Part shown: positions 6,107-61,627 of the stretch, one piece after another
Position numbering within the stretch: the stretch's first letter is position 1
Layout of the letters: the number at the start of each line of letters is the position of its first letter
Source: a virus
IMG/VR virus record: IMGVR_UViG_3300031992_000005
Location: 128,001-192,000 of that record
DNA: 64,000 nucleotides
Direction: 5' to 3' (one strand)
Program-made: the position numbers and the translations under genes
The notes under the pieces: model-generated
The model's input: the letters and a program-made list of their open reading frames with translations, nothing else
Databases searched by the model: none
Told to the model about the DNA's origin: nothing

Positions 6107-6110
6107 TACA

Positions 6111-7513: not shown

Positions 7514-7519
7514 CTTTTT

Positions 7520-8221: not shown

Positions 8222-8309
8222 AAGTTAATAGTTTTTGGAACAATACATTTGTAAGGATTTGAAGCGTAGTTTTTGCTGATCTCTGCCCATAGAAACCTTA
8301 TCTTTGATT

Positions 8310-9029: not shown

Positions 9030-9835
9030 AAAGGAAAGTTTTATACCTAGTTATCGGTCTTATACTAGGATTAATTGCAGGTAATCAAGTAATTGGTTGT
9101 TCTGGAGAAGAAAACAGTGATCTTCCTTCTTTCAGAGAATGGAAATATGCTATTGAAGTTCCAGACTCGAAGACAGATAAAATGGTAATTAGCCATACTG
9201 GATTTACTGTCTCTTATAATCCCGATACCAATTGTCCCTCTTGGGTAGCTTGGAACTTAACAAAGGAAGAAGTAGAGCTTAAAAATGTACCGAGGAGTGA
9301 TGAGTTTTTACCAGACCCAGATCTTCTCCCAGAATACAGAGTAGTCACTTCAGATTATACTGGGAGTGGATATGATCGAGGTCATATGTGTCCTGCAGCA
9401 GATATGAGATGGAGTAAGGACGCAATGAGGGACTGCTTTTATATGTCAAATATCTGTCCACAAATTCCTGTCTTGAATAGACAATGGTGGGAACATGCTG
9501 AAGAAGCTTGTAGAAGATGGGCAGTATCTGAAGGCAGTGTTTATATTTGTTGTGGTCCTATTTATGATCCAGACCTAGTTCCAGTTTATATAAGAAAGAG
9601 TCACTCCATTAGAGTACCAGATGGATTCTTTAAAGTTGTCTTATCTTTAAGACCTGGACATGAAAAAGCAATAGGATTTATTTATAGTAATACCGATTCG
9701 CGTCAGCCTATGGAAGATGTAGCCATGACGGTTGATAATGTAGAGGAAGCTGTTGGCATAGACTTCTTCTATTATCTACCTGATAGCTTAGAATCTAGAT
9801 TAGAAGCTGAGTATAACCTTAATTCCTGGAACTGA
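9026..9835 (+). CDS. secreted DNA/RNA non-specific endonuclease (NucA/EndoG family), probable lipoprotein
   Basis: DRGHMCPAAD and SNICPQ motifs. The N-terminus MKRKVLYLVIGLILGLIAGNQVIGCSG looks like a signal peptide with a lipobox-like Cys. Start 9026 forms an ATGA overlap; the track start is 8978. Confidence 0.85.
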   Translation: MKRKVLYLVIGLILGLIAGNQVIGCSGEENSDLPSFREWKYAIEVPDSKTDKMVISHTGFTVSYNPDTNCPSWVAWNLTKEEVELKNVPRSDEFLPDPDLLPEYRVVTSDYTGSGYDRGHMCPAADMRWSKDAMRDCFYMSNICPQIPVLNRQWWEHAEEACRRWAVSEGSVYICCGPIYDPDLVPVYIRKSHSIRVPDGFFKVVLSLRPGHEKAIGFIYSNTDSRQPMEDVAMTVDNVEEAVGIDFFYYLPDSLESRLEAEYNLNSWN

Positions 9836-30071: not shown

Positions 30072-30587
30072 ATGACGGTAATCAAAGTAGATGAGTCAAA
30101 AGAGCCTTTTGATATTATCAAAATTCATAAGGCCCTAGAAAAAGTTTTCTCTCAATGCGGAGAAGATTTAACAGAAGAGATCTTAACTAACCTGGATGAA
30201 TATGTCAAGAAATCGTTAGACACTGAAGCAGATGTTGAGATTGAGGTGGATGATATTCACAACCTAGTTGAGCAATTTCTTATGTTGAATAACTTCTTTG
30301 CTGCATCTAAGTCTTATATCTTAGGACGATATAAGAAGGCCTTAGAGAGAGCAGAGAACAAAATGTATATTAAAAGTTTATCAGAAAAATTAAGTGCAAT
30401 TGATGTAGCTAATCAAAATGCAAACGTAGATGAGAAGAGCTTTGGTGGTAGAATAGGTGAGGCTAGTAGATATGTTGTAAAAGACTTTGCCTTGAACTAT
30501 TGTATGAGCCGAAAATCAAAGAACAATCATCTTAATAATGAAATCTATATTCACGACCTCGATTCTTACACAATTGGTTCTCATAAT
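30072..30587 (+). CDS. nrdD: nrdD exon 1, N-extein part
   Basis: ATP-cone-like MTVIKVDESKEPFDIIKIHKALEKV; ends ...IYIHDLDSYTIGSHN. Confidence 0.8.
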
Positions 30588-33500
30588 TGCGCCCATGGTA
30601 AGTCATGGGTTAAGATAAAACATGGTGGCAAAATTCATTTAACTCGTATTGAAGATCTTGCTAAAGAAGTTGGTTTGACTGATGGTAAACTAGCTGATGT
30701 ATCAAAAGACTGTTGGCAGATTTTGTCACGTGATGGATGGACAAAGCTCAAGAATATTTCCCAGAGAAAATTAAGGGAAGATGAAGAGCTTTTTACAATT
30801 AAGACAAGAACAGGCATACCACTTAAATTGACTGGTGAGCATAGATTGCCTATTCTAGATGAAAACGGTGAAGAAAAAGTAGTGAAGGTTAAGAACCTAA
30901 AGGTAGGTGATTCTCTGCTTGATATAGGGAATATTCGTTTTTCAGAGGAAGATTTGAATGAGTCTTTCTTGAACTTATTAGAACTTAACGACGATGTTGT
31001 AGATATTAGGATAACTAATCTATCTTCATTAAAAAGCTATTTGGAGTATCATTATGGTATTAATTTTACGGAGTTTGCTAGAAAGAATAATTTTGCAATA
31101 GATCCTAGGGCAAAAACGATGAAATTATGCGATTTCGTAAAGTTAACAAGAGAATATCCAATTTCATTTGAAGTTTATAGTAATTTATTAATTAAGTCCA
31201 GTGGTTCAAAGCATACTTATCCACTTCACATACCGTATACACCACAATTAGCTAAACTTTATGCTTATATTTATGCAGATGGTGGAGTATATGTGAATGA
31301 GGAGAAAAGCATGTTTCAGATTACTTTTACAAATACTAATGAGAAGCTTTTGGATGATTTCATTGATTGCTATGAAGATGTATTTGGATATAGACTTAAC
31401 AAATCGTATCCAGGTGCTACGGCAACTTCTCCTTGTATTAGAGTAACTGACGGAACCAGACTCATAGTAAAGATCTTTAGAGATTTTGCTGGGGCTAGAA
31501 AAAATGGATCCAATAATATCTCGGTACCAGACTTTGTTATTAATGGAACAAATGAGATCAAGTATGCATATTTATCTGCTTGTATAGATACTGACGGTTG
31601 TCTCAATAATAATAGAATTACCTATCACTCCTGTTGTGAAAGATATTGTCAGCAGTTAGCAATTATGTTAAACTCGCTTGGTTATCATCCAACCGTAGTA
31701 CAGTCAGGTAAAGCAGGTGAAGAATATCATTTCGGAAATAAGGTCGGAAAAAGAAACTTTGATTCTTTTGCAGTTGCGTTGTCGCGTAAAGATGAACTTG
31801 CTGCATTACAGTCAAAATTATCTTGCCTTAAGCACAATGATACTTATGTGTATCGTGGACTTAAGGATAAGTATGTTGAGAATAGGATTGTATCTATTTC
31901 AACCAGTTATGAAGATTGTTCCGTATATGATATGGAAACTGCTTCACATTGGTATATTATAAATAATTATGTCAGTCATAATTGTCTCACAATTCCATTT
32001 GACGAACTTCTCGCCAGTGGATTTAATACGAGACAGACTGATGTAAGACCAGCAAACAGTATTAATACTGCTTTGCAACTTGTAGCTGTAATATTCCAAC
32101 TTCAGAGTTTACAGCAATTTGGTAGGCAAAACTGCCTGTTAAGCCCTTTCCACTAATCAGTGGGGTATAGATGTAATCTATGCTAACGATGAAGCCTAAG
32201 TGTTCAGTGATGCGACATAAGGTAATATCGTGGGAATGTAATTTAATAAAATTACAAGCCTGTATCGACTATCTGCGGATCGGCAGAGTAAGGCAACTAT
32301 TGATACGTTGTTTGAAATGGGCTTTGCTAGATTTATTAAGTCTAGTTAAGATATAGTCAGTGCATATAGAAATATATGATAAAACGGGTGTATCGGCATC
32401 ACACCTCGATTGGACTCTTGTTCCATACGTTAAGAAATCGTTTTATAAGCATTTCAAGACAGGAGCAGAATTCATTGAAGGAGTAACAATTCCTATTGAG
32501 GAATTTAACGATAAAATGTCGCTCGATGATGAGAAGTATAAGTCGAGCGGAAAAGTTTATACATTTGCTATTAAGCAGACAGAGAAAGAACTAAAGCAAG
32601 CAGTGGAGGGAATGTATCATAATCTCAATACACTCCAATCACGTAGTGGGAACCAATTATAACTTGCTGATTATCAGCTAGTTACGAAAGTAGCGAAATA
32701 TTGATTGGCTATGTAGAAATACATTGAAATAATCGGGGCAAAATCGGTGAACCCTAAATTTTAAATTGTAAAAATTAATTCATTTCACTTTAATAGAAAT
32801 TATTATATGGGTAAAAGAGTAAAAATCACAGAAGAATTAAAAAAAGATATTATAAATTTTTATCGCAGTAAGCCAATGTCATTTCTTACAGTAAGCGAAA
32901 AATACGGTTTATGTTTGCCAACAATAAGTAAGATTTTAAAAGACGAAGAAAGATACAAGAAAGCGTCTATTTTTAATCCAGACTTTGATGAAGCGTATTT
33001 TGAAAATATTGATACAGAAGCAAAGGCATACTTTTTTGGATTAATAATTGCTGACGGTAATGTTTTTATCGACGAAAAAAATAAAAAAGCGAATAGGCAA
33101 GCAGTTATATCAATAATGCTAAATTCAAGTGATGAATATATACTAGAGCGCTTTAAAAACGAGGTAAAAACAAATACTATTGTTGGACATGATGGTAGAG
33201 GGTGTTCACAAATAGCGGTTAGAAGTAATAAAATGTCAAAAGACTTGGAAAAATATGGTGTTGTGCCAAGAAAAAGTTTTATAACTTATTTACCACAAAT
33301 AGATAAAGAGTTAATGCCGCATTTAATAAGGGGCATAATGGATGGAGACGGCAGTATAAATGCCCATTTAATTAAAAGTGGTAGATTTTTACATTCGATT
33401 GCATTTTGTGGAACTCATAGATTAATGTCTGAAATATCTGATTTTATATATTCTAATGCGAATTTGAATACAAAACCCAAAGTGTATGATTATAAAACTA

Positions 33501-35642
33501 GAACACTTAGTGAAATTGCTGTAAGAGGTATCGATGATATGTTTAAACTTGGGGAATTTATTTATAACAATTCAACCATATACTTAAACAGAAAAAGAGA
33601 AACTTATAATATGTTTTTAGAACATTACAATTTTTAAAACAAGGGAATACCGAGGTAATTTCTGAGATTGCGAAAGGCTCAGAAATACCGTAGAGCGTAG
33701 GAGGTGAATAAATATAATCCTCCCAAGAGTGTCCCCCCTTAGCGAGTAAAGTCGAAGGTGAAAATGTACGCCGACCTTATGGGAAACCATAAGAACTATG
33801 GGATAAAAAGCCTGTAGGATAACATAAGTGGCCATTTACATCTATCAATTACGGTACATGTACGTCCGTAGAAGGTAGAATGGTGATAAAAGCCTTGCTT
33901 GAAGGTTCGATTAATGGTGTGGGTAAATTTCATAGAACATCCATATTCCCTAAAAGTACCATTGGGGAAATAAAACAAGGTGAACTGTCAGAGACAGGTG
34001 TGGAAGTAGAATATAGTAGGAAATGACTATTGAGATACTTTTGCTAACAGGGGAAATCTAAACTTTAAATTAAAGCACGACAATCCTGTGCCAAGTTCTT
34101 TTATAGAAAAGGTCAAACGACTATCCTATGACGTTATTTAACTGAGGAGTAGGTCTATAGCGATATAGTTCCGAAGTGCCTTGTACTACTGAAGAGTAGT
34201 AATGATATAGTCTAATCCGGCTTCCTAGTAAGCGTTAAAGTATTGCGAAAGCAACGGTATATAATGTGTGGAATTTTCCAGTATATGAAGGGTGTTAATG
34301 ATAAGCCTGGAACGCCAAATTATGATATGTATAAACTTGCATTAGAGTCAACAGCAAAACGTTTGTATCCAAATTATGCGAACGTTGACTGGAGTGGGAA
34401 TGCTGGATATGATAGAAATGATCCAAAAACTTACTTCAGCACGATGGGTTAGTGTAAATGTAGCTCATCTAAAATCTCTTGAACCGTGCCAACGGGTGTC
34501 CAGAAATGGGCTAACTGCCAGGCCCTAAAGTTTTAGGGTGAAGCAGTGCTAAGCTTAGAAGAATTTCTAAGAAAGTGTATCGACTATTGGTGATGAATGT
34601 AGCCAAGTAGGGGAGGAGATAGGCACCTCTTCGAAGCGGGAGACTTCTCAGGAAAATGAGAAGAAGATATAGTCAGTGCCTTTGGTAACAAAGGGTTAAC
34701 ATGTGCAGAACTGCAAACGGTTTTGATATAAATGGTTTAGGTCAGTTAAAGGATGGTAGAGGAAATGTATGTCCAGTTACTATCATTATGCCGACCTTAG
34801 CGATGGAAGCCGACAGAGATGTAGAGAAGTTCATGCGTCTCTTAGGAAGAAAAATTGAAGAAGCAAAAGACATGTTAATTGAGAGATTCAACTGGATTTG
34901 TAGTCAAAGTCCAGAGTCTGCTAGATTTATGTATGAGAATAATACTATGGCGGGTTATGTTCCGTCAGAGGGTATTAGGTCTGCATTAAAGCATGGAACT
35001 CTCAGTTTAGGTCAGCTTGGCTTAGCAGAAACTCTCCAGTTATTGATTGGAACGGATCATACAACAGAGGAGGGTATGAAGTTAGCCAAGAGAATTGAGT
35101 CTCTTTTCAAGAAGAGATGTGCAGAATATAAAGAAAAGTATAAATTAAACTTTGGTGTATACTACACACCAGCCGAAAATCTCTGTTATACTGCATTGAA
35201 GAAATTCAGAACAAAATATGGAGTAATAAAGGATGTAAGTGATAAGGAATTTTTCACTAATTCCATCCATGTTCCTGTATGGAGAGATATGAACCCATTT
35301 GAGAAGATTGATATTGAATCTCAGCTCACGGGTTATTCTTCGGCGGGTTGTATTACTTATGTTGAACTCCCATCCACAGTATTAAATAATATTGAGGCTT
35401 TGGAGACGTTAGTGAATTATGCAATGGATAAGGATATTCCTTATTTTGCAGTTAATGTCCCAAATGATACTTGTATGGAATGTGGTCATACTGGTGAGTT
35501 CGATGTTTGTCCTGAATGTGGTTCAGATAATGTAAGTCAGTTAAAGCGAGTTACTGGCTACTTGAATCTAGATTACAGAACTTCTTTCAATGAAGGAAAG
35601 CAGGATGAAGTACGGTATAGAGTAAAACACATCAAAGGTTAG
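30072..35642 (+). CDS. nrdD: anaerobic ribonucleoside-triphosphate reductase NrdD. Mosaic gene with 5 exons and an intein in exon 1; inferred mature protein about 723 aa
   Basis: ATP-cone N-terminus, IYIHDLD, SRSGNQL-PFTSINYGTCTSVEGRMV, IFP-CGIFQYMKGVNDKPGTPNYD, STMG-CRT, Zn ribbon CMECGH..CPECG, and glycyl-radical RVTGYL. The pieces are spread over 5 track ORFs and one untracked frame. Confidence 0.9.
30588..31982 (+). mobile_element. intein (465 aa) with a LAGLIDADG homing-endonuclease domain, in-frame within nrdD
   Basis: Starts with Cys (CAHGKSWVKIK). Has block B LKLTGEHRLPI (TxxH) and two LAGLIDADG motifs (LAKLYAYIYADGGVY, KYAYLSACIDTDGCL). Ends VYDMETASHWYIINNYVSHN followed by +1 Cys (CLTIPFDELLASGF). 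Confidence 0.8.
31983..32123 (+). CDS. nrdD: nrdD exon 1, C-extein part
   Basis: CLTIPFDELLASGFNTRQ...LQSLQQFG. The ORF then runs into junk and a stop 11 codons later. Confidence 0.75.
32124..32386 (+). mobile_element. group-I-like intron 1 of nrdD (263 nt, no ORF)
   Basis: The 5' exon ends in T and the intron ends in G. Joining gives QQFG-GVSASHLDWTLVPYV. Contains CGACTAT (32266) and GATATAGTC (32350), which can pair GACTA/TAGTC (P7-like). Confidence 0.7.
32387..32658 (+). CDS. nrdD: nrdD exon 2
   Basis: GVSASHLDWTLVPYVKKSF...NLNTLQSRSGNQ(L). It has no plausible start codon of its own at the conserved region. Confidence 0.75.
32659..33830 (+). mobile_element. group-I-like intron 2 of nrdD (1172 nt) carrying a LAGLIDADG homing endonuclease gene
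   Basis: The 5' exon ends in T and the intron ends in G. Joining gives SRSGNQL-PFTSINYG. I did not see the GATATAGTC element in this one. Confidence 0.6.
32807..33637 (+). CDS. LAGLIDADG homing endonuclease (intron-encoded), N-terminal HTH-like region
   Basis: Two LAGLIDADG motifs, YFFGLIIADGNVF and HLIRGIMDGDGSI. Sits between nrdD exons 2 and 3. Confidence 0.85.
   Translation: MGKRVKITEELKKDIINFYRSKPMSFLTVSEKYGLCLPTISKILKDEERYKKASIFNPDFDEAYFENIDTEAKAYFFGLIIADGNVFIDEKNKKANRQAVISIMLNSSDEYILERFKNEVKTNTIVGHDGRGCSQIAVRSNKMSKDLEKYGVVPRKSFITYLPQIDKELMPHLIRGIMDGDGSINAHLIKSGRFLHSIAFCGTHRLMSEISDFIYSNANLNTKPKVYDYKTRTLSEIAVRGIDDMFKLGEFIYNNSTIYLNRKRETYNMFLEHYNF
33831..33951 (+). CDS. nrdD: nrdD exon 3 (40 codons; not in the ORF track)
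   Basis: Hand translation: PFTSINYGTCTSVEGRMVIKALLEGSINGVGKFHRTSIFP, a highly conserved NrdD block. Confidence 0.75.
33952..34266 (+). mobile_element. group-I-like intron 3 of nrdD (315 nt, no ORF)
   Basis: The 5' exon ends in T (cct) and the intron ends in G. Contains CGACTAT (34118) and GATATAGTC (34204). Confidence 0.65.
34267..34449 (+). CDS. nrdD: nrdD exon 4
   Basis: CGIFQYMKGVNDKPGTPNYDMYKLALESTAKRLYPNYANVDW...YFSTMG. Confidence 0.75.
34450..34703 (+). mobile_element. group-I-like intron 4 of nrdD (254 nt, no ORF)
   Basis: The 5' exon ends in T (ggt) and the intron ends in G. Contains CGACTAT (34581) and GATATAGTC (34666). Joining gives STMG-CRTANG. Confidence 0.7.
34704..35642 (+). 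CDS. nrdD: nrdD exon 5 (C-terminal third with Zn ribbon and glycyl-radical loop)
   Basis: CRTANGFD..., CMECGHTGEFDVCPECG and RVTGYLN. Confidence 0.85.
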   Translation, partial: CRTANGFDINGLGQLKDGRGNVCPVTIIMPTLAMEADRDVEKFMRLLGRKIEEAKDMLIERFNWICSQSPESARFMYENNTMAGYVPSEGIRSALKHGTLSLGQLGLAETLQLLIGTDHTTEEGMKLAKRIESLFKKRCAEYKEKYKLNFGVYYTPAENLCYTALKKFRTKYGVIKDVSDKEFFTNSIHVPVWRDMNPFEKIDIESQLTGYSSAGCITYVELPSTVLNNIEALETLVNYAMDKDIPYFAVNVPNDTCMECGHTGEFDVCPECGSDNVSQLKRVTGYLNLDYRTSFNEGKQDEVRYRVKHIKG

Positions 35643-36493: not shown

Positions 36494-38134
36494 ATGATTA
36501 TACAGAGTAAGTATACAAAGATATTCCATTCAAAGGATTTAACTCGTCAGAAGTATGATGAGTTAAATGACTTTGCTGTGCTTATTCAAAACCATAAAAA
36601 CACCGTGTCACAATACGTTAATGATAACATTCTTCATTTCTTGGAATACAATAAGTTCCAATTCCTTAAGGTAATGAGAGAACGTTTCAAAGAAGTTATC
36701 CCAAGTTCATTTGATGCACAACTTTATACACAAGTGTTCACTTGTTATCAGAATAAATTCGATGCAATACAACGTAAACTTGTCTTTGAAATCGTTACAT
36801 TTAAAGGATTTGAGTTTTATAAACGTGATACCAAGAAACATAAGGAAGGTGACTTGAAAAAAGTAGTTTTTGATAAGAAACAAACACCATTATCTAACTG
36901 TCTTACTTATCTTGCGAGATACAGTAATGAGAATACAATAGACTACATCAATGACAATATAAGCAAGTGTGACGAGAAGAAACGTGAGTTCTATAACAAC
37001 ATACTAAGATGTTGTGATAAATTCGGATTTGAACGTCTCTACAATCTTGCTTTGTCAAAAAGAAAACGTGTTGTCAAGCATTATTCTGAATATCCTATTG
37101 AGTTCAAGTCATTAACGTTCAGTGGTAGGTGTAGGAAGACAAGGATAATAGACTACAACAGTAGGTTTGGTTCAGTAATCAATTCATTCGTAAGTCTCAG
37201 TGGAATTGGTAGGAAATCATTTGATGTACCAGTTACCTTTAATAAAGGTTGGCATGGAAGTATGAAGGATTACAGAAAGAAAAATAACGATTATGAATAC
37301 ACGCTTACATTTAATGAAAAGAATCACCAAGTGAATATTCATCTGTGTAAAGATGGAGAAAGGTATATACCACAAGTACATGGTGAAACAATAGGCATTG
37401 ATGTTAATTGCAAACATAATTTGTTCAGTTTGTCAGATGAAACCACTTATGACTATGATAGAAAACTTGTTAATGACTTCTGTAAACTATCTCTTGAAAT
37501 AGATAAATTGAAAGAAAAAGATAAAAAATATAAGGTTGGTAAACGTAAACAGCAGAAACTTGATACTCTCAAATCCAAAATGATTAAGTCTGAGCAGCAA
37601 CTTATTGCTAATATGTGTAAGGTATTACATTCACAAGGTGTGGGGCATATTGTAATGGAAGACCTTGATAATGGATTTGGCAAATGCTATGTTAAAGATA
37701 AGGATAATGAGAATATAAATTACAACAGAAAGGTTAAATTCCTTGGCTTGAGTAGTCTTAAACAAGAAGTTGAGCGTATTGCAAAGAAATATGATATTGC
37801 GGTTTCAACAGTTCAAGCAAGTTATACATCGAAGATGTGTCCTATGTGTGGATGTATTGAGGACGAAAACAGACCAAACCAAGAAACATTTGAATGTGTT
37901 GAATGTGGACATAAAGATAATGCAGACTTTAATGCTGCAAAGAACATAAGGAACAGAGTGCTTGTAATCGTGTTACGAGATTTGCTCTTAAAACAAAAGG
38001 ATAATGGTGCTTTTGAGCCTAAGAAACTTAAACGTGAGAAGGTAAAGGAGGTATTGTTATCGTTTCGAAGAAGCCTACAAAATGTAGGAAGTGAATGTAC
38101 AGAAAGTAGTGTGACTACTTTTGACTATGTTTAA
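36494..38134 (+). CDS. tnpB: TnpB / Cas12-like RuvC nuclease (IS200/IS605-IS1341-type OrfB), 546 aa
   Basis: RuvC-I ETIGIDVNCKHNLF; RuvC-II GHIVMEDLDNGF; zinc ribbon CPMCGC...CVECGH; RuvC-III DNADFNAAKNIRNR. No TnpA and no CRISPR array nearby. Confidence 0.85.
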   Translation: MIIQSKYTKIFHSKDLTRQKYDELNDFAVLIQNHKNTVSQYVNDNILHFLEYNKFQFLKVMRERFKEVIPSSFDAQLYTQVFTCYQNKFDAIQRKLVFEIVTFKGFEFYKRDTKKHKEGDLKKVVFDKKQTPLSNCLTYLARYSNENTIDYINDNISKCDEKKREFYNNILRCCDKFGFERLYNLALSKRKRVVKHYSEYPIEFKSLTFSGRCRKTRIIDYNSRFGSVINSFVSLSGIGRKSFDVPVTFNKGWHGSMKDYRKKNNDYEYTLTFNEKNHQVNIHLCKDGERYIPQVHGETIGIDVNCKHNLFSLSDETTYDYDRKLVNDFCKLSLEIDKLKEKDKKYKVGKRKQQKLDTLKSKMIKSEQQLIANMCKVLHSQGVGHIVMEDLDNGFGKCYVKDKDNENINYNRKVKFLGLSSLKQEVERIAKKYDIAVSTVQASYTSKMCPMCGCIEDENRPNQETFECVECGHKDNADFNAAKNIRNRVLVIVLRDLLLKQKDNGAFEPKKLKREKVKEVLLSFRRSLQNVGSECTESSVTTFDYV

Positions 38135-38972: not shown

Positions 38973-40103
38973 ATGTTTGATGATGAAGATTTTCTTCTAG
39001 ATGATGAAGATTCAGATTCGGGTTATATAGTAACCCCAGCGGATGAAGATGCTGAGGATGACAATGACGATGAGAATGGGTCGGAAGTTGAAGAAGAAGC
39101 CAAACCCACTAGAAAAAAGAAAGCAACTGAGGATGATTATGATAATCGAATGACTCATGATGAGTTAGCCCTTAGTAGTGCTTACGATGATATTCGGGCT
39201 GCTAGTAAGAATCCGGATAAGATTTCTGTGGGTGGTAAAATGTTTGATCAAAACATTATAGATGCGGTAAGAACTATTATTGGTTGTTCACCAGCTAATA
39301 CTTCTACTCACTTTATTGAGAAGATAACACTTGAATTCTTCCAATCTCAGGGTCATAATCGTATTCCATCCAGCGTATATACTCCAGATCAGCCATTACG
39401 TGGAAGTTCAATTGGTGAGGAATTTGGTGGTCAGGATGATAATGGTTTCAATGAGCAATATGCTAAAGAAGCCAGAGAGCAGATTGCGAGGTTTATAAAA
39501 TACTTGGCGGATAGAGATTTGAGTAAAGATTCTACTGTAAGTAGAAAAAGGAAGTTAAGACAGCTCCCTGCTTTTATCATTTTCCTATTCAGTTCTGGTA
39601 TGTACGACCTTCTCCTGAACTGTGAGACATTACCACCGGAGTATAAAACTCAGGTGAATAATGCTTTCAAGAGAATTCAGAAACAGAAATATGATATTGT
39701 TGAGGCATTGGCTAAGCGTTATGAAGAGCTAGGTAGGCAGGCTATAGCAGATAGAGTGAGAAAAATGGGTCTCACTTGGTTTGATAAGGAGCCAGCTGAA
39801 TTAACGGGGTTAAAGACTTTCAAAGATCTTGACCTAACCCATGAGGATATCATGGTATATCGTGAATTTAGACCTAGATATGTAAACGCTAGTAAAAATA
39901 TAACTCAGGAATTAATATCAGATATGATTGAAGTTGTCTTAGTCCCTGGCAAGATTTATGAAAAGCTAAAGGATAAGACTAGATTTGATGCTATCTCTGA
40001 TGTTAAGCAAGTCTACAAAGATTGGTCCGCTAATAATGCAGTGGATTCTGAGCTTGCCTCAAAAATTATCTGGAAAGATCCTAAATTAGTAAATAAACAA
40101 TAA
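38973..40103 (+). CDS. hypothetical protein with an acidic N-terminus, first gene of the RNAP block
   Basis: 376-aa track ORF whose stop lies 2 nt before the beta' start; no motif recognised. Confidence 0.55.
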   Translation: MFDDEDFLLDDEDSDSGYIVTPADEDAEDDNDDENGSEVEEEAKPTRKKKATEDDYDNRMTHDELALSSAYDDIRAASKNPDKISVGGKMFDQNIIDAVRTIIGCSPANTSTHFIEKITLEFFQSQGHNRIPSSVYTPDQPLRGSSIGEEFGGQDDNGFNEQYAKEAREQIARFIKYLADRDLSKDSTVSRKRKLRQLPAFIIFLFSSGMYDLLLNCETLPPEYKTQVNNAFKRIQKQKYDIVEALAKRYEELGRQAIADRVRKMGLTWFDKEPAELTGLKTFKDLDLTHEDIMVYREFRPRYVNASKNITQELISDMIEVVLVPGKIYEKLKDKTRFDAISDVKQVYKDWSANNAVDSELASKIIWKDPKLVNKQ

Positions 40104-40105: not shown

Positions 40106-41249
40106 ATGGCAGATGTAAATCTAGAATTATTAACAGACGAAGATATTATTGACTATACTAGATCAGATGGTCGTGATAGAATTGTTAATAATCATAGAGA
40201 CTTAAACTTAAGGTTTGATTACATAAAACCAGAAGGTGGTGGAGTGTATGATACTGAAATTTTTGGTTCCCCATATGAAGATAGATGTATTTGTGGTTAT
40301 ATTAGACAACCCTCGGCAGAGCCTTGTCCTAACTGCGGAGCACGTGTATATTCTATGGAAGAAGGCTTGAGACGTTTTGCCAGAGTTGAATTACCATTTT
40401 ATTATCTTAATGAACTTAGATTTAATATCTTTAAGGAATTTTTCGATAAGATATTTGAAGGGAGTACCATTAAGCTTGAATTTTTTGGTGATGACTTAAG
40501 GAGAAACGGTTATGCTGAAGGACGAAGTAAGAAAAAGCTTGGTATTAAAGTTTTTGATACTTGCCAGTTTGAGTATAATAAAGCTAAGAAGGAACTAACT
40601 ATTTCAGAGTTTATTACCGACGAATCCAAATGTTCCTACGAAGGTCTCATGAAGATTATTGAGGAAAATTTTCCTGAGAGTCTCATGGACTATAAACGGC
40701 TGATCAATAGATATTATCTTATACTACCAGCTATGATGAGAAGATTTAGTCTTGTCAAGGAAGGTACATCTACGAAGATGAATACTAACAAGCTGAGTAT
40801 ATGGTATTCTATTATAATTCGTCTCTGTTGTGTAGAAGATGATAAGAAAAATCCATCCAACTATAAAACAGTGATGGACATGTTTAAGACTCCTGGTGAG
40901 AGAGTAAGATATACTGCTCTCCTAAGAGCTCTTATTAATGTAGGTAAGAAACAGTCAACGGAGCTTCTAAATACTTCAAAGAAAAACTTATCACGAAAGG
41001 TTTATTCAGTTCGTGTAAAGAATTCTGCCAGAAGCCCTATTGTTCCAAGTACTACCTTGAAAGTAGATGAACTAGGTGTTCCTAGATATCTTGCTTATGA
41101 AATGTGTAGAGAGGGATTCATAAAATATCTTTGTGAAGAACTAAACTTTACTCCAGAACAAGCAAGAAAATCTACAAAAGATGAATCTGATAATCTTGAA
41201 CTGCAAAGACTCTTTAAGGAGTATGCAGAGAAAAGATACGTGCTAGTGT
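40106..41249 (+). CDS. rpoC: rpoC-like exon 1
   Basis: The N-terminal zinc-binding region through ...KRYVLV. The track ORF stops 1 codon later. Confidence 0.75.
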
Positions 41250-44200
41250 ACTAATTGGTACGTAATTTTGAGAATTGCTGAAACCTGAATAAATCCGGGA
41301 ACCAGCAGCTAGTTTTGGGTTTCTACAAAATAATGCCTATGATAGAAGAAGAAAAGCCCTGGTCTAGGAGTGAACATATGAAATACCTACACAGTCAAGG
41401 AAGATATCTTGGCACAAGTAAGATAGGTCAATGGAATTCTAGTCCAGAGAAACATCTTAGGATGATATCAATTCGTGAAAAGAATCTCTTAGATAAATCG
41501 TCTCATGGTTATGGGTCGGAATATCATATGAGGTTAGCAAATAGAACCCTATTACATAATAAATTTCAAGGAGAGGAAGGTTTTCTTTATTTCTTAGATT
41601 TTCCCGCTAGTGTTAAAGTGGGATTTTCAAAAGATTGGGAAAGAAGGATTAACCAACAATTGCCAAAGCAGATATTAGGTGGGAAAGTTATAGCGATTAT
41701 ATCAGGTCCCACTAATGACCTGGCTGATCTGGAATTTGATACTTTTGTCAAGTTCCAGAAATATACTAAATTAGATTCCACCGGAACTAGGTATACTGAA
41801 TTCTTGGAGAAAAGAAAAAAATCAGAAATCTATAAGTTCTTGAAAGAGTCTGTTAAAAATAATAAGAACCTTAAATTTGAAATTCAAAACTAGTTCAACG
41901 ACTATGTGCAAAAGAAAAAGATATAGTCTGTCCTAGGTCGAAAGACTTAGGGGTAACGAGTAACACGACAGCCAGTACTTCATGAATATAATATTTACTG
42001 TCAGAAGATTAGGATAGTTGATCAAGATGCAGTAGCTTATCCAATTGAGCTCTGTGGACCACTTAACGCTGACTTTGATGGTGATACTGTATCTATGATC
42101 CTGGTTCCTGATGAAGTAGCTGAGGATACCTATAAAAAGATGAGTCCTAGGTATAACAAGATTTATAAGAAAAATCTTGAAAATGTCTTTGTATTCAATC
42201 ATGAAACTCTTAATGGTCTAGCCAATGCTACTGAATATACTCCTGACGATCCTAATGATCTGAAGGAACCTAAGTATTATTACACTGATTATACAGAACT
42301 CCTAAAAGATGTTGAGGTTAATCATAAGATTAATTATGGTACACCTATTGTCTTTACAGGAAAAATAGGGGATGTAGATTATCAGAGTAAGATTACTACA
42401 TACGGACGTCTTAGAATATCTAAGATAATTGATGCAGACCTTGATGAGATCCGAGTAGAAGGTAAGCCTATTATGGAAAATCCGTATGAAAGACTAAACG
42501 CGAAGACAGCAGGTAAACTGATGTCTTATCTCTATGGTTTCGATAACTGGGTAGAGAAGGCAAATGAATTACAAAAATTTGCCCTAAAGGTTGTAACTAA
42601 GACAGGTGTAGTAACATTTGACTATTCAACCTTGTATGCTGATACTGATAATGAAACTTATAGAGATATTAGAAAAATTGCTGATTCGGAAGATCTTACA
42701 GATAAGCAGAAACTTACCTTAATTACAGAGAGATATGGAAAATATCTCAAAGGCCTTGAGAGAGATTTTAGTTCCGACCTGAAGAAAGAACTAGATAGAT
42801 CTGCTAGGGTAAAGTTAAATTCCATTATTGCTATTAATGCACCGTCATTGATTATCAATGGTCCGGAAGAAAAGGTAGTAGTAACTCATGGAAATCTTTT
42901 GGAAGGTTTTAGTGAAAAGGAATACTTGTATCATGCTATCGAAAATAGATCCCTCCTGACGATCAAGCAGAGTGGCGTCAATAGTTTTTATCGGTGCGTC
43001 ACTATAAAAACCACAACTATTGCTGGAAAATAATAAAATAAATTATAATCAGCAACTTATTATGAAAGAAAAAGTATTAAATTGGGTAGAACTACTAACT
43101 GCAGTGGCAGCTGTTATTGGTGGTATTGGAGAGATCCTCAAGCAATTTGGAATTGCCTCTGACAAAGTGAAGGAGACAATTAAAGCTAAGAGGGAAGAGG
43201 CTTTTATGAATAATAAGCCCAACGACTATTGTTGTGGCACTCAGGAAGAACAGAGTGAGAAACCTGAGTGATGGTATAGTCTATCCTGGATTGAAAGATT
43301 CAGGGCGGCGTGGGTTGAAAACTAACTCACGTCTGGCCGATTGGTGGTTATTTAACTAGACAGATCTCATTCTTGTTGAATAATTACACTTATAGAGAAA
43401 AGGGAGAAGATAAGGAAAATCCTGGTCTTCTTATTCCTAGATACGTGGCTACTGGTAGAACTTCTCCTACAGGAAAGGTATATCCAGCAGTTACAAAGAA
43501 AAATGAAGATGAACTAGTACCTGTTAGATCTATTGTAACTAAATGTAAAGGAAACTTATATGAAGTTACTCCAGATCTCTTGGGCAAAGCTTTCTTAAAG
43601 GCTAGTTTTCCTGATGGATCTGCAATCGGTCCTAGTGTTGGTACTAGTTTTACAGAAAGTACTACTCAAGGTATCCTTGCTCTTAAACATGGTGGTCATG
43701 AAAGAAAGCAAGCAGTTGAAGGAAACTTATATGCACCTAAAGATTGCGAGCTTATTGAAGATGGTAAGTTCTTGAAACTAAAAGTAAGAGGTAACAAAGA
43801 ATTAGTCTATCCTAAACCTAGTAATTGGGTTGGACTTGGTAAAACGGAGTTCAAGGAAGGTGAATTGGTCGGTACTGCTTACAATACTTCTTCGCCAATT
43901 ATCATGCTTAATTCTGTCTTAAAGCTTATGCAGGCTAAGGGCGGAACTGGTAGTAAATACTTTGAAAAGGATAACGTTATTATATCAGACTGTTATGCTT
44001 ATGAAGAAGGTGTAATAAACTACGTTGAGGATAAGCATGGAAGAATGAATGTAACTATTGGAAATAGATACTATGCTTATAATCCAGAGGCTATGTATTA
44101 TTATCCTTCAGGAACTACTATTAAGAAGTTTCAGAGATTTTGTTCTGGTGTAGTTAATATGAGACAGGTTTCTTCTGACTTAGGTGGTGATCTTAGCTCA

Positions 44201-44545
44201 ATCTTTAATATTTTCCGAAGACAATATTATACATTGGTTAAGGATGATTTTATTGAAAATGGAGTTGGACCACATGATATGCCAGAGGAAATTGTAGAGA
44301 TTGTATTTGCTGGACTTACTAATATTGTTAGAACAGATAAGGGCGATGTAACTGAAGTAGAGTTTCAGGGAACTCAGACGTCTATTACAAACAATAAGAG
44401 TAAATCATTCTTTACTGCTCTGTCATTCGGTTGGTCAGAAAGTGCAGTCGATAAGGCTATTAGAGGAGAACTTAATCTTGAAAAGGATACCATGACTGAA
44501 ACAGTACTTGGTTTGTTATTAAATGATAATTTAGATAAAGTTTAG
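40106..44545 (+). CDS. rpoC: multisubunit RNA polymerase beta'-like subunit. Mosaic gene with 3 exons; inferred product about 1120 aa
   Basis: Zn finger CICGY..CPNCG, RSPIVPSTTLKVDELGVPRYLA, (L)TRQPVLH, PLNADFDGDTVSM, SG(V)GYLTRQ and TESTTQGILALKHGGH. Confidence 0.85.
41250..41960 (+). mobile_element. group-I-like intron 1 of the rpoC-like gene (711 nt) with a GIY-YIG/T5orf172-like ORF
   Basis: The 5' exon ends in T and the intron ends in G. Joining gives YVLV-LTRQPVLHE. Contains CGACTAT (41899) and AAGATATAGTC (41918-41928). Confidence 0.65.
41315..41893 (+). CDS. intron-encoded GIY-YIG-superfamily (T5orf172-like) endonuclease candidate
   Basis: EGFLYFLDFPASVKVGFSKDWERRINQ ... LADLEFD resembles GIY..YIG..R..E. 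The track start is TTG; the first ATG is at 41336. Confidence 0.4.
   Translation: MGFYKIMPMIEEEKPWSRSEHMKYLHSQGRYLGTSKIGQWNSSPEKHLRMISIREKNLLDKSSHGYGSEYHMRLANRTLLHNKFQGEEGFLYFLDFPASVKVGFSKDWERRINQQLPKQILGGKVIAIISGPTNDLADLEFDTFVKFQKYTKLDSTGTRYTEFLEKRKKSEIYKFLKESVKNNKNLKFEIQN
41961..42978 (+). CDS. rpoC: rpoC-like exon 2 (contains the catalytic NADFDGD)
   Basis: Hand translation upstream of track ORF 42095: (L)TRQPVLHEYNIYCQKIRIVDQDAVAYPIELCGPLNADFDGDTVSMILVPDE. There is no start codon before the motif. Confidence 0.75.
42979..43344 (+). mobile_element. group-I-like intron 2 of the rpoC-like gene (366 nt) with a small non-endonuclease ORF
   Basis: The 5' exon ends in T and the intron ends in G. 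Joining gives TIKQSGV-GYLTRQISF. Contains CGACTAT (43223) and GGTATAGTC (43273). Confidence 0.6.
43062..43271 (+). CDS. small intron-embedded ORF (69 aa, one hydrophobic helix)
   Basis: MKEKVLNWVELLTAVAAVIGGIGEILKQFG... The track ORF 43020..43271 starts in exon sequence; the ATG at 43062 is more plausible. Confidence 0.35.
   Translation: MKEKVLNWVELLTAVAAVIGGIGEILKQFGIASDKVKETIKAKREEAFMNNKPNDYCCGTQEEQSEKPE
43345..44545 (+). CDS. rpoC: rpoC-like exon 3
   Basis: (V)GYLTRQISFLLNNYTY... through TQGILALKHGGH. The in-frame stop lies only 9 codons upstream of GGYLTR and there is no ATG before it. Confidence 0.75.
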
Positions 44546-44547: not shown

Positions 44548-44775
44548 ATGGGATTAGTAAAATTTGAAGTAGAAATCCCAGACTTTGACAATGAATTAAC
44601 GATTTCAGTTACTTTAAAAAAGGACGGTGAAGTAGTAGAGGAAAATACTACTTCACTTCCTGATCAAAGTCAGGGGAAAAGAAAAATTGCCAGAACTAAG
44701 CCGGTTAATAATTCAGGGGGAACTGAAGCAAAACCGGCAAGAGTTGCTGGAAACTTAATGAACGAAGATTTCTAA
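44548..44775 (+). CDS. hypothetical small protein in the RNAP block
   Basis: Track ORF. Confidence 0.45.
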   Translation: MGLVKFEVEIPDFDNELTISVTLKKDGEVVEENTTSLPDQSQGKRKIARTKPVNNSGGTEAKPARVAGNLMNEDF

Positions 44776-44783: not shown

Positions 44784-45149
44784 ATGAATAAAAATAATGA
44801 TAGTTATTATTACAAAATAGTTTTGGCGTATGAAATACCATACAACGTCTTAGATAGTAACGATCCTGATAAGATCTTAGCTAGGGAGAATCTATATCAA
44901 GCGATAACTAAGATTATTCCCACTAGTAAGTATGATAAATTTTCAGTTAAACTTATGCTTTTTCAATTAAAGGATACGTTTAACTACGTGGTGATGTTTG
45001 ACTCTTTCTTTAGGTCTACAGAAGGTTTACCTATGAGTGAGTACACTGAGGCTAGTAAGATTAAACAGGCAGCTAAGGATGAACTAGAGAAATACTTTAA
45101 TTCACTCGACTGCGATTATAAACCACTGAATATAATTACATTATTATAA
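44784..45149 (+). CDS. hypothetical protein in the RNAP block
   Basis: Track ORF; TAATG junction with the beta-like gene. Confidence 0.5.
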   Translation: MNKNNDSYYYKIVLAYEIPYNVLDSNDPDKILARENLYQAITKIIPTSKYDKFSVKLMLFQLKDTFNYVVMFDSFFRSTEGLPMSEYTEASKIKQAAKDELEKYFNSLDCDYKPLNIITLL

Positions 45150-48100
45150 TGAGTAATTTTAATCAATTTTTCAAAAATCAAGGGGCAAAGACGATGGTAG
45201 AGCGTTTCTTTACCGGAATAGATGAATATACGCCAAATAAGAAACTAACAAACCTAACTTGGCATCTAGCCGAAGAAGATAAACGCCCAGCTTCATATTT
45301 CATAGAAAATGGATTAACTGCAACTCATAAGGTAATCCTGGAGTATACAATTAACTATGATGATGAAATTCGTACATCTGAGTTTGAAGTCCCTAGAGAA
45401 ATAGACGGTGTATTTATTATAGAAGGAGCTTATCGTATTGCTACTAATAACCTAGGAAAAGACTATGATTGTAGAATCAATATGTCAGGTACTGGTAGAC
45501 AATACATTAACTTTGACTATGGTAGAGAATATGACATCAAGACTGGTATTCTTAAAATAAAGAGGGTAAATCCTGACTTAGGTTTACCTGAAAAAGTAAG
45601 AGAATATAAGTTAGATGAAATAGATGAACTCAGTGGTATTGAAAAAGAAGTTCTAAAACTTTCTGAAAGACAGAGAAAGAAGTTTCAGGTAAAGCTTGAT
45701 ATTGATTATTCCCCGGATTATATTTCAAAGAAGCTTATCGAGGATTGTATTGCTTATGGCGATGATAGAATTCGAGATCTTATTATTGATAAGAAGATTG
45801 ATTCTGTTCCCGTTGGTTTTATGAAGTATATCTTCAATGGAGGTAATAATAAGAACTTCTATGGTACAAAATCCCAACTAAGAAACTATTGGAGTAAGCA
45901 AGGTAAGTTACAGGACCAGATTAATGTACTTACAAATCTTTGTGCTAGATACTGGAAAGGTAGTAGTTCAAAGAAGAAAGGAGAGGATAATGATGTTCAA
46001 GTTTCTCCTGGTGTAAATGCCATGAACCTGGAAAGTATCACGAATAAAATCTATATTCCTGAAACTGTAGCTTATAATACTACCTTTAGTGACTTGATTT
46101 GTGTTGGTGCTACACCAAATAATGGTAACATCGGTAAGCAGAATGCCTTGACTGTATCTACCCATATTACAGATGAGGATGTTCTCTTTGACTGTTATAC
46201 TACCAAGTTTCAAAAGATCACTATCCCATACTTGGATTATCTTAATCATAAGGTATGTGCTAGTGAGTACGTTGACTATGATACTAATACCGTTAAACCC
46301 GATAAGGATGGTAAGGTAGAAGTTAAGCATAGAATGCGTAGAAAGATGGTACCAGTGGAGGAAATTGAGTTAATTGACCTTCACCCAGACTATCGTTTAT
46401 CAGAAGAAGTAAGACGTATACCGTTTGTGAATTTTACTGACTCTGTTCGTATCTGTATGGGTAGTGGTATGTTAAAGCAAGCTATTCCACTTGTTAATGC
46501 AGAAAGACCTCTAGTAGATACAGGTAACTATGAAGAGCTTCATACAAACGTCTTGAATGAACGTTTTAAAGAAGAGTCTGGTGTAGTTAAGGATGTAAAT
46601 GAAGAGGGAGTATTAATAGAACTTCCTAATAAGGATGAAATTCTTATTCCAAGAAAAACTGCTATTCAGAGTATAAATGATGTTGACGTCTTTACTGAGC
46701 CTAAAGTTAAGAAAGGCCAAAAGGTAAAGAAGGGTGATGTTATTACTGGAGCAGTTGGCTTGGAAGAAGATACCTATAAAATGGGTATTAATGCTCTCGT
46801 CTTATTCCATGCAATGTTTGGTGATGTCAATGAAGATGCCTTAGTAGTTAGTGAGTCTTTCTCAAAGAAAATGCACTCTTACTCTGTTATCGACCTGATA
46901 TATGAAGTAAGAACTAATGAGGCAATCAAATGGATAGCTCCAATAGGTCAACAGGTAAAGTCTAAAGATCCCGTCATGATGACCTATAAGGCTGTTAAAC
47001 TTGACTTAGTCAATAAGGCCTTGAATGATAAATTAGGTGGTATCTTTGGAGATCAAAAACTAGATCTCTCTGAATATACTATTGAAAGTAACTTGGAAGT
47101 TCCTAATGACATTGATGAAGCTTATGTTAGTGATGTTAGAATTCAGGAAAATTTACACCCTAGAGTTCCTGGTGGTACTAAGAGACCTGACTTAACTTAT
47201 GCTCATACATCAGAGGAGACTATCAAAGATTATAATTTTGATAGAAAAATTATCTATGATAGATATCCAGAATATATTGCAGCAGATAGACTTAAGGATA
47301 TATCATTAGCAGATAAGGATTATAAGATTGTTTATGTAGTTCGTATTAGACTTATTAAGAGAACAAATCTTATGATCGGATCTAAGGTTACCAACCGTTA
47401 TGGTGGTAAGGGTGTCATTTCTAAGATCTTGCCAGATGATAAGATGCCAATCATGGTAGAATCTGCAACTGGTAATAAGAAAGTTGTGGATATTGTCATG
47501 AACCCTTATAGTACAATTAACCGAAAGATTCCTTCTGTTAATATGGAGAGTCTCTTAGGTTCAATTGCGCATAGAATTCATGACATAGTAGATGAGAGGA
47601 AAAATGATAAGAAAAAACAGGAAACTATCATGCCTCTTGTTCAGAAGTATTATCCTGGTCGATTTGATGGAATGACATTAGAGAAGTTCTTGAAGTTACA
47701 TGAAAATAGTAAACTTGAGGACGTATATTACTTCAATGTAGGTAGTTACTCTAGACTTACTCCAAAGCAGATAGATGAATGGGCAAAGGAATTAGGTGTT
47801 ACACCTCAATCAAAGATTCTCATGCCTAGTGATACTATCGCTGACCTTGATGAGCTTAAAGCGAACTTAAGTGAGGAAGAATATAATACCGCCGTTAAGA
47901 ACTTGACAGGTAGATACGTAGAAGTTGAAAAGCCACTTAGTGTTGGTTATATGACTATGGAAGAACTATATCAAATTCCAACTTATAGTGATAAGGTAAC
48001 TTCTAGTATGTTCGGTGTTGATGTTAATGAGTGGGTAGATTCTCCTATTATGGGTAGAGGTGGTTATAGAAAAACTGGTCAGATTATCGGTGAAATGGAG

Positions 48101-48310
48101 CTCATGGCATACTTGTCAAGAAATGCCAGAGATTTCATTAAGCTCTCTAGAGGAGATACCTCAAGAGAAGATAATCAGCTCTTCTTGAATAACCTCTTAG
48201 GTCTTGGTCTAACTGTTACAGACAGTAAGGGTTATAATCAGGGCGGTTCATCTCTCAAGAGTAGACTTGGTGAGATGAAGACTAAATTCAGACTAAAGAA
48301 TCAGAAATAA
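45149..48310 (+). CDS. rpoB: multisubunit RNA polymerase beta-like subunit
   Basis: NRYGGKGVISKILPDDKMPIM...VDIVMNPYSTINRKIPS (compare bacterial RHGNKGVISKI..EDMP...DIVLNPLGVPSRMN) and GGYRKTGQIIGEMELMAYLS (compare GGQRFGEMEVWALEAYG). Confidence 0.85.
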   Translation: MSNFNQFFKNQGAKTMVERFFTGIDEYTPNKKLTNLTWHLAEEDKRPASYFIENGLTATHKVILEYTINYDDEIRTSEFEVPREIDGVFIIEGAYRIATNNLGKDYDCRINMSGTGRQYINFDYGREYDIKTGILKIKRVNPDLGLPEKVREYKLDEIDELSGIEKEVLKLSERQRKKFQVKLDIDYSPDYISKKLIEDCIAYGDDRIRDLIIDKKIDSVPVGFMKYIFNGGNNKNFYGTKSQLRNYWSKQGKLQDQINVLTNLCARYWKGSSSKKKGEDNDVQVSPGVNAMNLESITNKIYIPETVAYNTTFSDLICVGATPNNGNIGKQNALTVSTHITDEDVLFDCYTTKFQKITIPYLDYLNHKVCASEYVDYDTNTVKPDKDGKVEVKHRMRRKMVPVEEIELIDLHPDYRLSEEVRRIPFVNFTDSVRICMGSGMLKQAIPLVNAERPLVDTGNYEELHTNVLNERFKEESGVVKDVNEEGVLIELPNKDEILIPRKTAIQSINDVDVFTEPKVKKGQKVKKGDVITGAVGLEEDTYKMGINALVLFHAMFGDVNEDALVVSESFSKKMHSYSVIDLIYEVRTNEAIKWIAPIGQQVKSKDPVMMTYKAVKLDLVNKALNDKLGGIFGDQKLDLSEYTIESNLEVPNDIDEAYVSDVRIQENLHPRVPGGTKRPDLTYAHTSEETIKDYNFDRKIIYDRYPEYIAADRLKDISLADKDYKIVYVVRIRLIKRTNLMIGSKVTNRYGGKGVISKILPDDKMPIMVESATGNKKVVDIVMNPYSTINRKIPSVNMESLLGSIAHRIHDIVDERKNDKKKQETIMPLVQKYYPGRFDGMTLEKFLKLHENSKLEDVYYFNVGSYSRLTPKQIDEWAKELGVTPQSKILMPSDTIADLDELKANLSEEEYNTAVKNLTGRYVEVEKPLSVGYMTMEELYQIPTYSDKVTSSMFGVDVNEWVDSPIMGRGGYRKTGQIIGEMELMAYLSRNARDFIKLSRGDTSREDNQLFLNNLLGLGLTVTDSKGYNQGGSSLKSRLGEMKTKFRLKNQK

Positions 48311-52385: not shown

Positions 52386-52458
52386 CGCGGGATGGAGCAG
52401 TTGGTAGCTCGCCAGCCCCATAAGCTGGAGGTCGGGGGTTCGAATCCTTCTCCCGCAA
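52386..52458 (+). tRNA. tRNA-Met (CAU), initiator-like
   Basis: A hand-folded 73-nt cloverleaf. CGCGGGA/UCCCGCA acceptor with a C1-A72 mismatch, A11:U24, anticodon loop CCCAUAA, T-loop TTCGAAT. The 5' half closely resembles bacterial tRNA-fMet (CGCGGGGUGGAGCAG). Confidence 0.85.
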
Positions 52459-61541: not shown

Positions 61542-61627
61542 GCCGGGATGACGGAATGGGTGAGACGTGACAGATTTAAAATCTGTTGGCTATTGCAGCC
61601 GTGTGGGTTCGAATCCCATTCCCGGTA
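61542..61627 (+). tRNA. tRNA-Leu (UAA), type II with a long variable arm
   Basis: A hand-folded 86-nt structure. Acceptor gccggga/tcccggt, 3-bp D stem, anticodon stem acaga/tctgt with loop TTTAAAA, 16-nt variable arm, T-loop TTCGAAT. Confidence 0.8.

Follow-up and report, generated by a model that had tools for sequence, protein, structure and literature searches.

Whether three adjacent reading frames that resemble parts of one RNA polymerase (RNAP) subunit constitute three genes, or a single gene whose messenger must be spliced, is the question raised by positions 40106-44545 (+ strand) of a viral DNA of 64,000 nucleotides (nt), positions 128,001 to 192,000 of IMG/VR record IMGVR_UViG_3300031992_000005 and hereafter referred to as the window. 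At this locus three open reading frame (ORF) pieces of 382, 312 and 390 amino acids (aa; 40106-41254, 42095-43033 and 43373-44545) are separated by two gaps, the first of which holds an ORF of 192 aa (41315-41893) and the second an ORF of 83 aa (43020-43271). A preliminary description, which gave these same coordinates for the three pieces, had interpreted them as a beta'-like gene interrupted by two group-I-like introns; the present analysis partly confirmed it, in that the observation proved to be real but the exact splice junctions were not as written. The locus can be regarded, with high confidence, as one beta' (RpoC-like) gene of a phage multisubunit RNAP cut by two group I introns.

Continuity of the beta' coding sequence

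When the joined product of the three pieces was searched against 5.8 billion proteins, 37 contiguous proteins of 1113-1158 aa were recovered that covered 100% of it at 52-60% identity. A further ~26 proteins of ~720 aa matched its first 64% (57-70% identity), and another set of ~700-aa proteins its last two thirds; alignment identified the former as exons 1 and 2 fused, ending at the second insert site, and the latter as exons 2 and 3 fused, beginning after the first. Intron-less homologues closed both gaps in the alignment with no residues missing at the joins, and tblastn mapping on related contigs revealed alleles with no insert (L011), with insert 1 only (L006, L007) and with insert 2 only (L003, L004, L012, L014, L015).

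Assignment of the joined product to beta' was confirmed at the level of both domain and profile. Pfam RNA_pol_Rpb1_2 matched residues 357-433, across junction 1, with 59.6 bits against a cut-off of 25.3. A profile comparison with bacterial beta', as suggested in the preliminary description, matched the family profile to chains in the Protein Data Bank (PDB) at E = 9e-38, with single profile stretches (281-747 and 289-836) that crossed both junctions. Exon 1, which includes an N-terminal Zn-ribbon-like CxC...CxxC block, aligned end to end with the contiguous homologues, and the profile matched the bacterial N-terminal zinc region there, domain 1 (positions 36-97) corresponding to the zinc element at Thermus residues 33-96. 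The profile likewise aligned vvlvnRqPtLhEy...NADFDGD with bacterial beta', the NADFDGD columns being invariant in the family alignment and in line with NADFDGD of Thermus beta'. Alignment of gvPssGYLTRq with SGYLTRKLV was weak for domain 3 alone, and the long stretches in other chains covered the region. The zinc element and the bridge-helix/SGYLTR region were found in canonical beta' order. G+C content was even over exons and inserts (0.34-0.39).

Two of the three pieces have no potential start codon ahead of their conserved blocks. Exon 2 opens as ...V^TRQPVLHEY (^ marks a junction), and the frame 5' of ATG 42095 translates to V-TRQPVLHEYNIYCQKIRIVDQDAVAYPIELCGPLNADFDGDTVS; since ATG, GTG and TTG are all absent from the 45 in-frame codons that separate the end of intron 1 from ATG 42095, the catalytic NADFDGD exon has no start of its own, as had been proposed, and a piece begun at ATG 42095 would be without the active site. 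Exon 3 opens with the residues (V)PIGGYLTRQISF; an in-frame TGA (43316-43318) lies upstream of its conserved GYLTRQISF block, none of the 12 codons before TTG 43373 is ATG, GTG or TTG, and that first possible start lies 3' of the block and comes too late, again in agreement with the preliminary description. In-frame stops also follow exon 1 (TAA 41252) and exon 2.

Jumbo phages, AR9 and phiKZ among them (PMC12350094, PMC11620839), often have split RNAP subunit genes, and gene callers in public assemblies list the present pieces as separate proteins, both of which would suit a naturally split beta' comprising three separately translated polypeptides, with the inserts as intergenic regions that hold a free-standing endonuclease gene. 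Such an arrangement is nevertheless considered very improbable, given that no start precedes either TRQPVLHEY...NADFDGD or the opening of exon 3, that the 37 contiguous relatives carry the same protein as an uninterrupted ORF, and that the inserts have a covarying ribozyme fold (vide infra) with guide sequences that pair with both flanking exons. The possibility that the inserts are inteins, or are dealt with by translational bypass or programmed frameshifts instead of being RNA introns, draws on the presence of an intein in nrdD, elsewhere in the window; its probability is judged to be negligible, as in-frame stops stand right after the exon ends, the exons lie in different frames, Pfam detected no intein domains in the inserts, and the RNA structure evidence points the opposite way.

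The earlier contention that splicing is needed for beta' was thus supported by both the startless exons and the contiguous homologues. Because the gene is split by two group I introns, its mRNA would have to be spliced before the enzyme could form, and a beta' running from the N-terminal zinc region through the NADFDGD centre to the C-terminal third could come only from the spliced mRNA.

Splice junctions and folds of the two introns

Exact junctions were established by combining homologue alignment with RNA structure. Intron 1 is placed just before the conserved (N/T)RQP(T/V)LH block, where intron-less homologues all read ...VLV-(N/T)RQP. The join 41244/41959 (...GTG CT^A GTA ACA CGA...) restored the VLV^TRQP register and put the U.G wobble of an 8-base-pair (bp) P1 at the cleavage site; by way of contrast, the join first proposed (41249/41961) was off by 5 and 2 nt, gave VLVLTRQP with one Leu too many relative to the intron-less homologues, and fitted no P1. 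The AGT redundancy at junction 1 permits alternative joins that keep the register and would yield an identical mRNA; of these candidates, 41244/41959 is the sole one with U at position -1 as well as a terminal G. All ten related introns at this site (site A) shared the 5' splice site GT(G/A)CT^A, and every one of them ends with G right before AG(T/C)AA.

The SGVPxxGYLTRQ block, situated where the bridge-helix region ends, is interrupted by intron 2; homologues read SGVP(S/A/T)SGYLTRQ there, and the join 42978/43336 yields SGVPIGGYLTRQ. The 5' site originally given for this junction (42978) was correct, but the 3' site was not: the intron ends at 43335/43336, 9 nt away from the proposed 43345, which would delete three residues relative to homologues and fits no P10. 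With the corrected site, a 6-bp P10 forms between 42990-42995 (ATCGGT), adjoining the 5' side of the P1 guide strand, and 43336-43341 (GCCGAT). A P10 of 5-9 bp was found in all eight related introns at this site (site C), and covaries with the variable P-x-x exon codons, as in TGGGGT/ACCCCA versus AGGGGT/ACCCCT. Both corrected junctions retain the U(-1)/terminal-G rule cited in the preliminary description, a rule obeyed by 18 of 18 related introns, and the spliced product is 1122 aa in length instead of the 1120 aa first calculated. The ligated exons would read ...GTGCT^AGTAAC... and ...GGCGT^GCCGAT... in one 1122-codon frame. Expected spliced junctions are therefore ...CGTGCT^AGTAACACG... (longer form ...GATACGTGCT^AGTAACACGACAG...) for intron 1, and ...GTGGCGT^GCCGATTGG... 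(longer form ...CAGAGTGGCGT^GCCGATTGGTGG...) for intron 2.

To characterise the folds, the ORF loops were deleted from eight site C introns and the cores aligned as the intron 2 family, and ten site A introns served as the intron 1 family, some of them obtained by a pattern scan of IMG/VR that returned 18 loci, mostly on 250-350 kb contigs. Used alone, RNAalifold predicted helices P1, P4, P5, P6, P7 and P8 in the intron 2 family; its prediction for the intron 1 family comprised P4, P5, P6 and P7. Once the P3 pseudoknot was included, paired cells made up 91.9% in the intron 2 family versus 28-45% in slid controls, and 20 compensatory pairs were counted versus 5-8, values that none of 500 shuffles reached; corresponding figures for the full structure of the intron 1 family were 87.8% versus 34-52%, and 14 versus 4-7. 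Compensation in P3 took the form of UA to CG, with changes of several types among members of the intron 2 family. At the 5' splice site the U.G was invariant in eight of eight intron 2 relatives, and the P1 pairs next to it covaried, exon AGT or TCT occurring with guide ACT or (C)AG, respectively. ORF-deleted folds were markedly more stable than shuffled sequences (intron 1: -56.3 kcal/mol, z = -6.1; intron 2: z = -5.1), and their minimum free energy (MFE) structures recovered the same helices, the P1 of intron 1 being present in the single-sequence MFE fold as well. The preliminary description had named the absence of any group I fold as an outcome contrary to its interpretation; a covarying fold of this class was found in both inserts.

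CGACTAT and (G/A)ATATAGTC-type elements, also reported in the preliminary description, were present in both inserts as the R and S elements, namely TCAACGACTAT (41895-41905) and GATATAGTCT (41920-41929) in intron 1, and CCAACGACTAT (43219-43229) and GGTATAGTCT (43273-43282) in intron 2. These strings agree with the RF00028 consensus, UCAaAGACUA ... AAGAUAUAGUCu; singly, such motifs are no rarer than chance in 64 kb, and it is their paired, ordered placement in both inserts that is meaningful. Coordinates are collected in Table 1.

Table 1. Exons, introns, RNA helices and coding features of the beta' locus, in window coordinates.
Feature	Coordinates	Strand	Basis or detail
Exon 1	40106..41244	+	codons 1-379 and first two bases (CT) of codon 380; ORF list
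Intron 1 (714 nt, last base G41958)	41245..41958	+	homologue alignment and fold
Intron 1 P1	41237..41264	+	exon TACGTGCT (41237-41244) / guide GGTACGTA (41257-41264); U41244.G41257 is the cleavage-site wobble
Intron 1 P3	41266-41270/41909-41913	+	
Intron 1 P4	41275-41280/41303-41308	+	P5 between strands
Intron 1 P6	41309-41317/41885-41893	+	encloses the ORF
Intron 1 ORF (186 aa)	41333..41893	+	putative T5orf172-like homing endonuclease; ATG 41333, TAG stop inside P6 3' strand
Intron 1 P7 (R/S)	41900-41905/41923-41928	+	
Intron 1 P9	41932-41939/41944-41951	+	
Exon 2	41959..42978	+	third base of codon 380 to first two bases of codon 720
Catalytic Mg-binding motif (NADFDGD) of beta'	42065-42085	+	translation
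Intron 2 (357 nt, last base G43335)	42979..43335	+	homologue alignment and fold
Intron 2 P1	42971-42978/42996-43003	+	AGTGGCGT/GCGTCACT; U42978.G42996
Intron 2 P3	43011-43017/43231-43237	+	
Intron 2 P4	43020-43026/43049-43055	+	
Intron 2 P6	43056-43063/43210-43217	+	
Intron 2 ORF (69 aa)	43062..43271	+	conserved small hydrophobic-helix peptide; ATG inside P6 5' strand
Intron 2 P7	43224-43229/43276-43281	+	
Intron 2 P8 (8 bp)	43238-43245/43263-43270	+	
Intron 2 P9	43285-43292/43297-43304	+	
Intron 2 P9.1	43309-43316/43324-43331	+	
Exon 3	43336..44545	+	third base of codon 720 to stop codon
beta-like subunit gene, uninterrupted (1053 aa)	45149..48310	+	Pfam RNA_pol_Rpb2_6, E = 1.1e-15

Three observations weigh against the group I assignment. 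Firstly, the covariation alignments were made after hand deletion of the ORF loops, with structure strings derived in part from the same sequences. Secondly, the Rfam model RF00028, a scan with which had been suggested in the preliminary description, matched neither intron at its gathering threshold or at E <= 10 when run on the window and the two inserts, and gave no match in the relatives' introns in L001 and L002. As RF00028 was equally silent over the inserts in the window's nrdD gene, where R/S-like elements are present, the negative was read as a limit of sensitivity, and is treated here as such and not as a refutation. Thirdly, intron 1 is without P2, a single base separating the guide sequence from P3, and without P8, normally part of the catalytic core, with just GAAAAA between P3' and P7'; the RNA outside its P6 loop amounts to ~147 nt.

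Without P8, autonomous catalysis by intron 1 is not assured, and a protein cofactor may be needed for its splicing. P8 is absent from the site A introns of the window (41906-41922), L001 and L006, and from the L001 site C intron, whereas a covarying P8 is kept at the same site in L007, L010, L021 and the clade of IMG/VR-scan loci L016-L033, the retained helices of intron 1 family members being 6-9 bp. A literature search for group I introns without P8 found no relevant paper in the library that was searched. Decay, or dependence on a helper, would mean that at least the P2/P8-less intron 1 no longer self-splices, the gene being a pseudogene or requiring a protein cofactor; loss of P8 in three site A introns whose sisters keep it, together with the lack of an Rfam match, is consistent with this. 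The balance of evidence makes it improbable all the same: the three carriers without P8 all have intact, conserved exons, the remaining helices, U.G wobble, terminal G and R/S elements are conserved, the downstream beta gene is intact, and P8 loss recurs, both among three diverged phages and at site C of L001, which argues for tolerance.

From this anatomy and the established group I pathway, a splicing route can be proposed for both introns. One pre-mRNA would be transcribed from the whole gene, and the internal guide of each intron would pair with the upstream exon end to form P1, with the U.G wobble at the cleavage site. Free guanosine held in P7 would then attack after U41244 or U42978, following which the terminal G (41958 or 43335) would occupy the guanosine site, with the downstream exon aligned in intron 2 by the 6-bp P10, and exon ligation would complete the process.

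Reading frames carried by the introns

The ORF of intron 1 was assigned an ATG start at 41333; an alternative start at TTG 41315 lies inside the P6 stem, and ATG is tentatively preferred. The preliminary description had likened the product to GIY-YIG/T5orf172 proteins. Two sets of results count against that likeness: the Pfam T5orf172 match (PF10544) was sub-threshold (14 bits where the cut-off is 20; E = 0.066) and occurred in one of five family members, and neither a sequence profile search of the PDB nor Foldseek against the PDB (E <= 1e-3) gave anything significant. No precomputed Pfam domain was present in any of the best 120 of the 319 homologues that make up the family, which is located on huge-phage contigs, those 120 being 67-97% identical to the query. 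More supportive evidence came from PHROG 681 'endonuclease', matched by two of five family members at E = 3.7e-5, and from an AlphaFold2 (AF2) model (predicted local distance difference test score, pLDDT, 77) for which Foldseek against BFVD returned 17 matches with E <= 1e-3 (6e-6 to 1e-3), comprising T5orf172-domain, CapR-homology and Hef-like homing endonuclease proteins. TM-scores were 0.31-0.64 over ~100-145 columns, and the targets are themselves predicted viral proteins. The initial likeness, which failed at the Pfam threshold, thereby gained some support from fold similarity, and the ORF probably encodes a homing endonuclease of T5orf172-like kind, a product that would most likely spread the intron into intron-less alleles during co-infection.

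The peptide encoded by intron 2 presents a very different case. In the window its ORF extends across P7, P3' and P8 before reaching a TGA stop, and each of the site C introns surveyed (the window, L001, L002, L003, L004, L012, L014, L015 and L034) has a homologue of 37-81 aa in its P6 loop. The peptide is characterised by the motif G(I/V)GE(I/L)L(R/K)Q(F/Y)N and by one hydrophobic helix (KD(19) 1.6-1.9) with a charged tail. Pfam and PHROG scans returned only noise below threshold (for instance 'spider antimicrobial peptide', E = 0.009), and the peptide is not a nuclease. Substitutions were biased towards synonymous change (pS 0.68 versus pN 0.35), with four synonymous and no non-synonymous changes between L004 and L014. 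The family is a narrow one (39 matches, and 34 clusters among 1.84 billion representative proteins), and a distant member likewise lies between beta' exon pieces. As the start codon falls in the P6 5' strand, splicing or intron folding could gate translation of the peptide, which is offered as conjecture.

Taken together, the two introns invite a tentative reading, rather more apt to fail than to hold, in which intron 1 is a naturally minimised group I ribozyme, reduced to the RNA outside its ORF loop, and intron 2 is a dedicated carrier of a functional non-nuclease peptide of 40-80 aa. As part of the same reading, and with equal reserve, the peptide may be under purifying selection and confined to one beta' intron site across a huge-phage lineage. 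Should these observations hold, the P2/P8-less intron 1 would represent a natural minimal group I ribozyme that still has to splice for an essential enzyme, and the peptide a functional cargo other than a nuclease, perhaps membrane-active or regulatory, carried by a phage group I intron. Follow-up is most warranted for the core without P2 and P8 and for the conserved peptide inside intron 2.

Known systems, related loci and neighbouring genes

Classical phage group I introns include those of T4 td, nrdB and nrdD/sunY, and of SPO1 and Twort. The present introns resemble them in ribozyme architecture, in having an ORF looped from peripheral helix P6 with start or stop codons in the stem, and in insertion at conserved codons of essential genes. 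They differ in that the host gene codes for RNA polymerase instead of belonging to nucleotide metabolism or being a DNA-polymerase gene, in the absence of P2 and P8 from intron 1, and in the ORF of intron 2, which specifies a small peptide and not a nuclease.

Intron-split RNAP genes are an arrangement already known in jumbo phages, and the case described here belongs to a different, uncultured lineage. The beta' gene of AR9/PBS1 contains introns of group I and of group II, and shares with the present gene self-splicing-type introns with endonuclease ORFs inside a jumbo-phage RNAP beta' gene, a group II intron being found also in the beta' of one relative of the window (L002). Unlike AR9/PBS1, the lineage represented here consists of uncultured phages of ~290-350 kb recovered in metagenomes of gut and animal origin; no match to the locus was returned by megablast against 50,697 phage records, and the best RNAP fragments found in isolates by tblastn were 22-30% identical. 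[quoted passage not shown]

A second comparison is provided by PhiPA3, a chimallivirus in which the gp210 intron of the vRNAP gene gp211/209 is of group I, encodes an HNH endonuclease and has a role in phage competition (Science 2024, PMC11620839). Common to both is a mobile intron with a homing endonuclease (putative in the present case) at a highly conserved and catalytic site of a jumbo-phage RNAP subunit gene, for which the likely benefit would be homing or interference in co-infection. By way of contrast, the PhiPA3 intron resides in a beta-like, RpoB-homologous subunit and HNH nickase activity has been demonstrated there, whereas two introns are present in the beta' described here, one with a putative T5orf172-like ORF and one without a nuclease.

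The gut Jug (jumbo gut) phages average 18.5 group I introns per genome, 37 of 76 tested having been confirmed by metatranscriptome (Sci Adv 2026, PMC12880540). Their terL, nrdD and DNA polymerase genes are listed as split, with RpoC used only as a marker (PMC12880540). Jug phages and the present one are alike as gut-associated huge phages in which group I introns of short length, together with inteins and endonuclease genes, break up essential genes, and nrdD of the window shows this pattern too; the Jug genomes, however, are of 27-30% G+C and 360-402 kb, as opposed to 34.7% G+C for the window as a whole.

The occurrence of intron-invaded RNAP genes is thereby extended from chimalliviruses and AR9-like phages to a separate gut-associated huge-phage lineage. 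Gene callers show the present beta' as three unrelated proteins, and as they and the Rfam model both miss the introns, RNAP genes of uncultured huge phages would be systematically mis-annotated unless intron-aware methods are deployed.

Survey of the relatives showed the beta' gene of this lineage to be an intron hot spot, with at least five group I insertion sites and one group II intron; L001 has inserts at sites A, B, C and D. In L001 (7256-7267) and L010 (5731-5742) a 12-nt micro-exon, GATTT(C/T)GATGGT (D-F-D-G), stands between two introns that split the NADFDGD codons; the introns on either side conform to the U(-1)/terminal-G rule, and those of L001 gave sub-threshold RF00028 scores of 33 and 25 bits. 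The group II intron of L002 (~5381-7667) lies near the NADFDGD codons, scored 61.6 bits for RF00029 domain V/VI, above the gathering threshold, and 31.6 bits for group-II-D1D4-5, and is preceded by an extra insert of ~210 nt. In L011, the relative with an intron-less beta', beta is present as two called genes (6943-8364 and 8615-9360) separated by a gap of ~250 nt that may be an intron.

In the window and in every related locus, the beta-like gene lies downstream of beta' in the same orientation. Equally syntenic, and without a Pfam family match, are a 376-aa protein with an acidic N-terminus coded for upstream of beta' (38973-40103, +) and two small ORFs between beta' and beta (44548-44775, 75 aa; 44784-45149, 121 aa; both +), the products of which may be polymerase accessory subunits.

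Elsewhere in the window, nrdD (30072-35642, +) is also fragmented, its pieces matching the NRDD profile at 2-60, 105-156, 206-263 and 264-562. An intein (Intein_splicing and LAGLIDADG_3) lies within the first of these pieces, and the gene holds at least three further inserts, with a 276-aa LAGLIDADG-like ORF (32807-33637) in the second gap. Pairs of R/S-like elements at ~34113/34201 and ~34579/34664 suggest at least two more group I introns. After nrdD, between nrdG and the RNAP cluster, lies a gene for a 546-aa TnpB/OrfB-like transposon-associated nuclease (36494-38134, +) with a Cas12f1-like TNB domain (Pfam E = 1e-16). Two tRNA genes were also detected on the + strand by Rfam, at 52386-52458 (58.3 bits) and at 61542-61627 (55.4 bits), the latter with a long variable arm.

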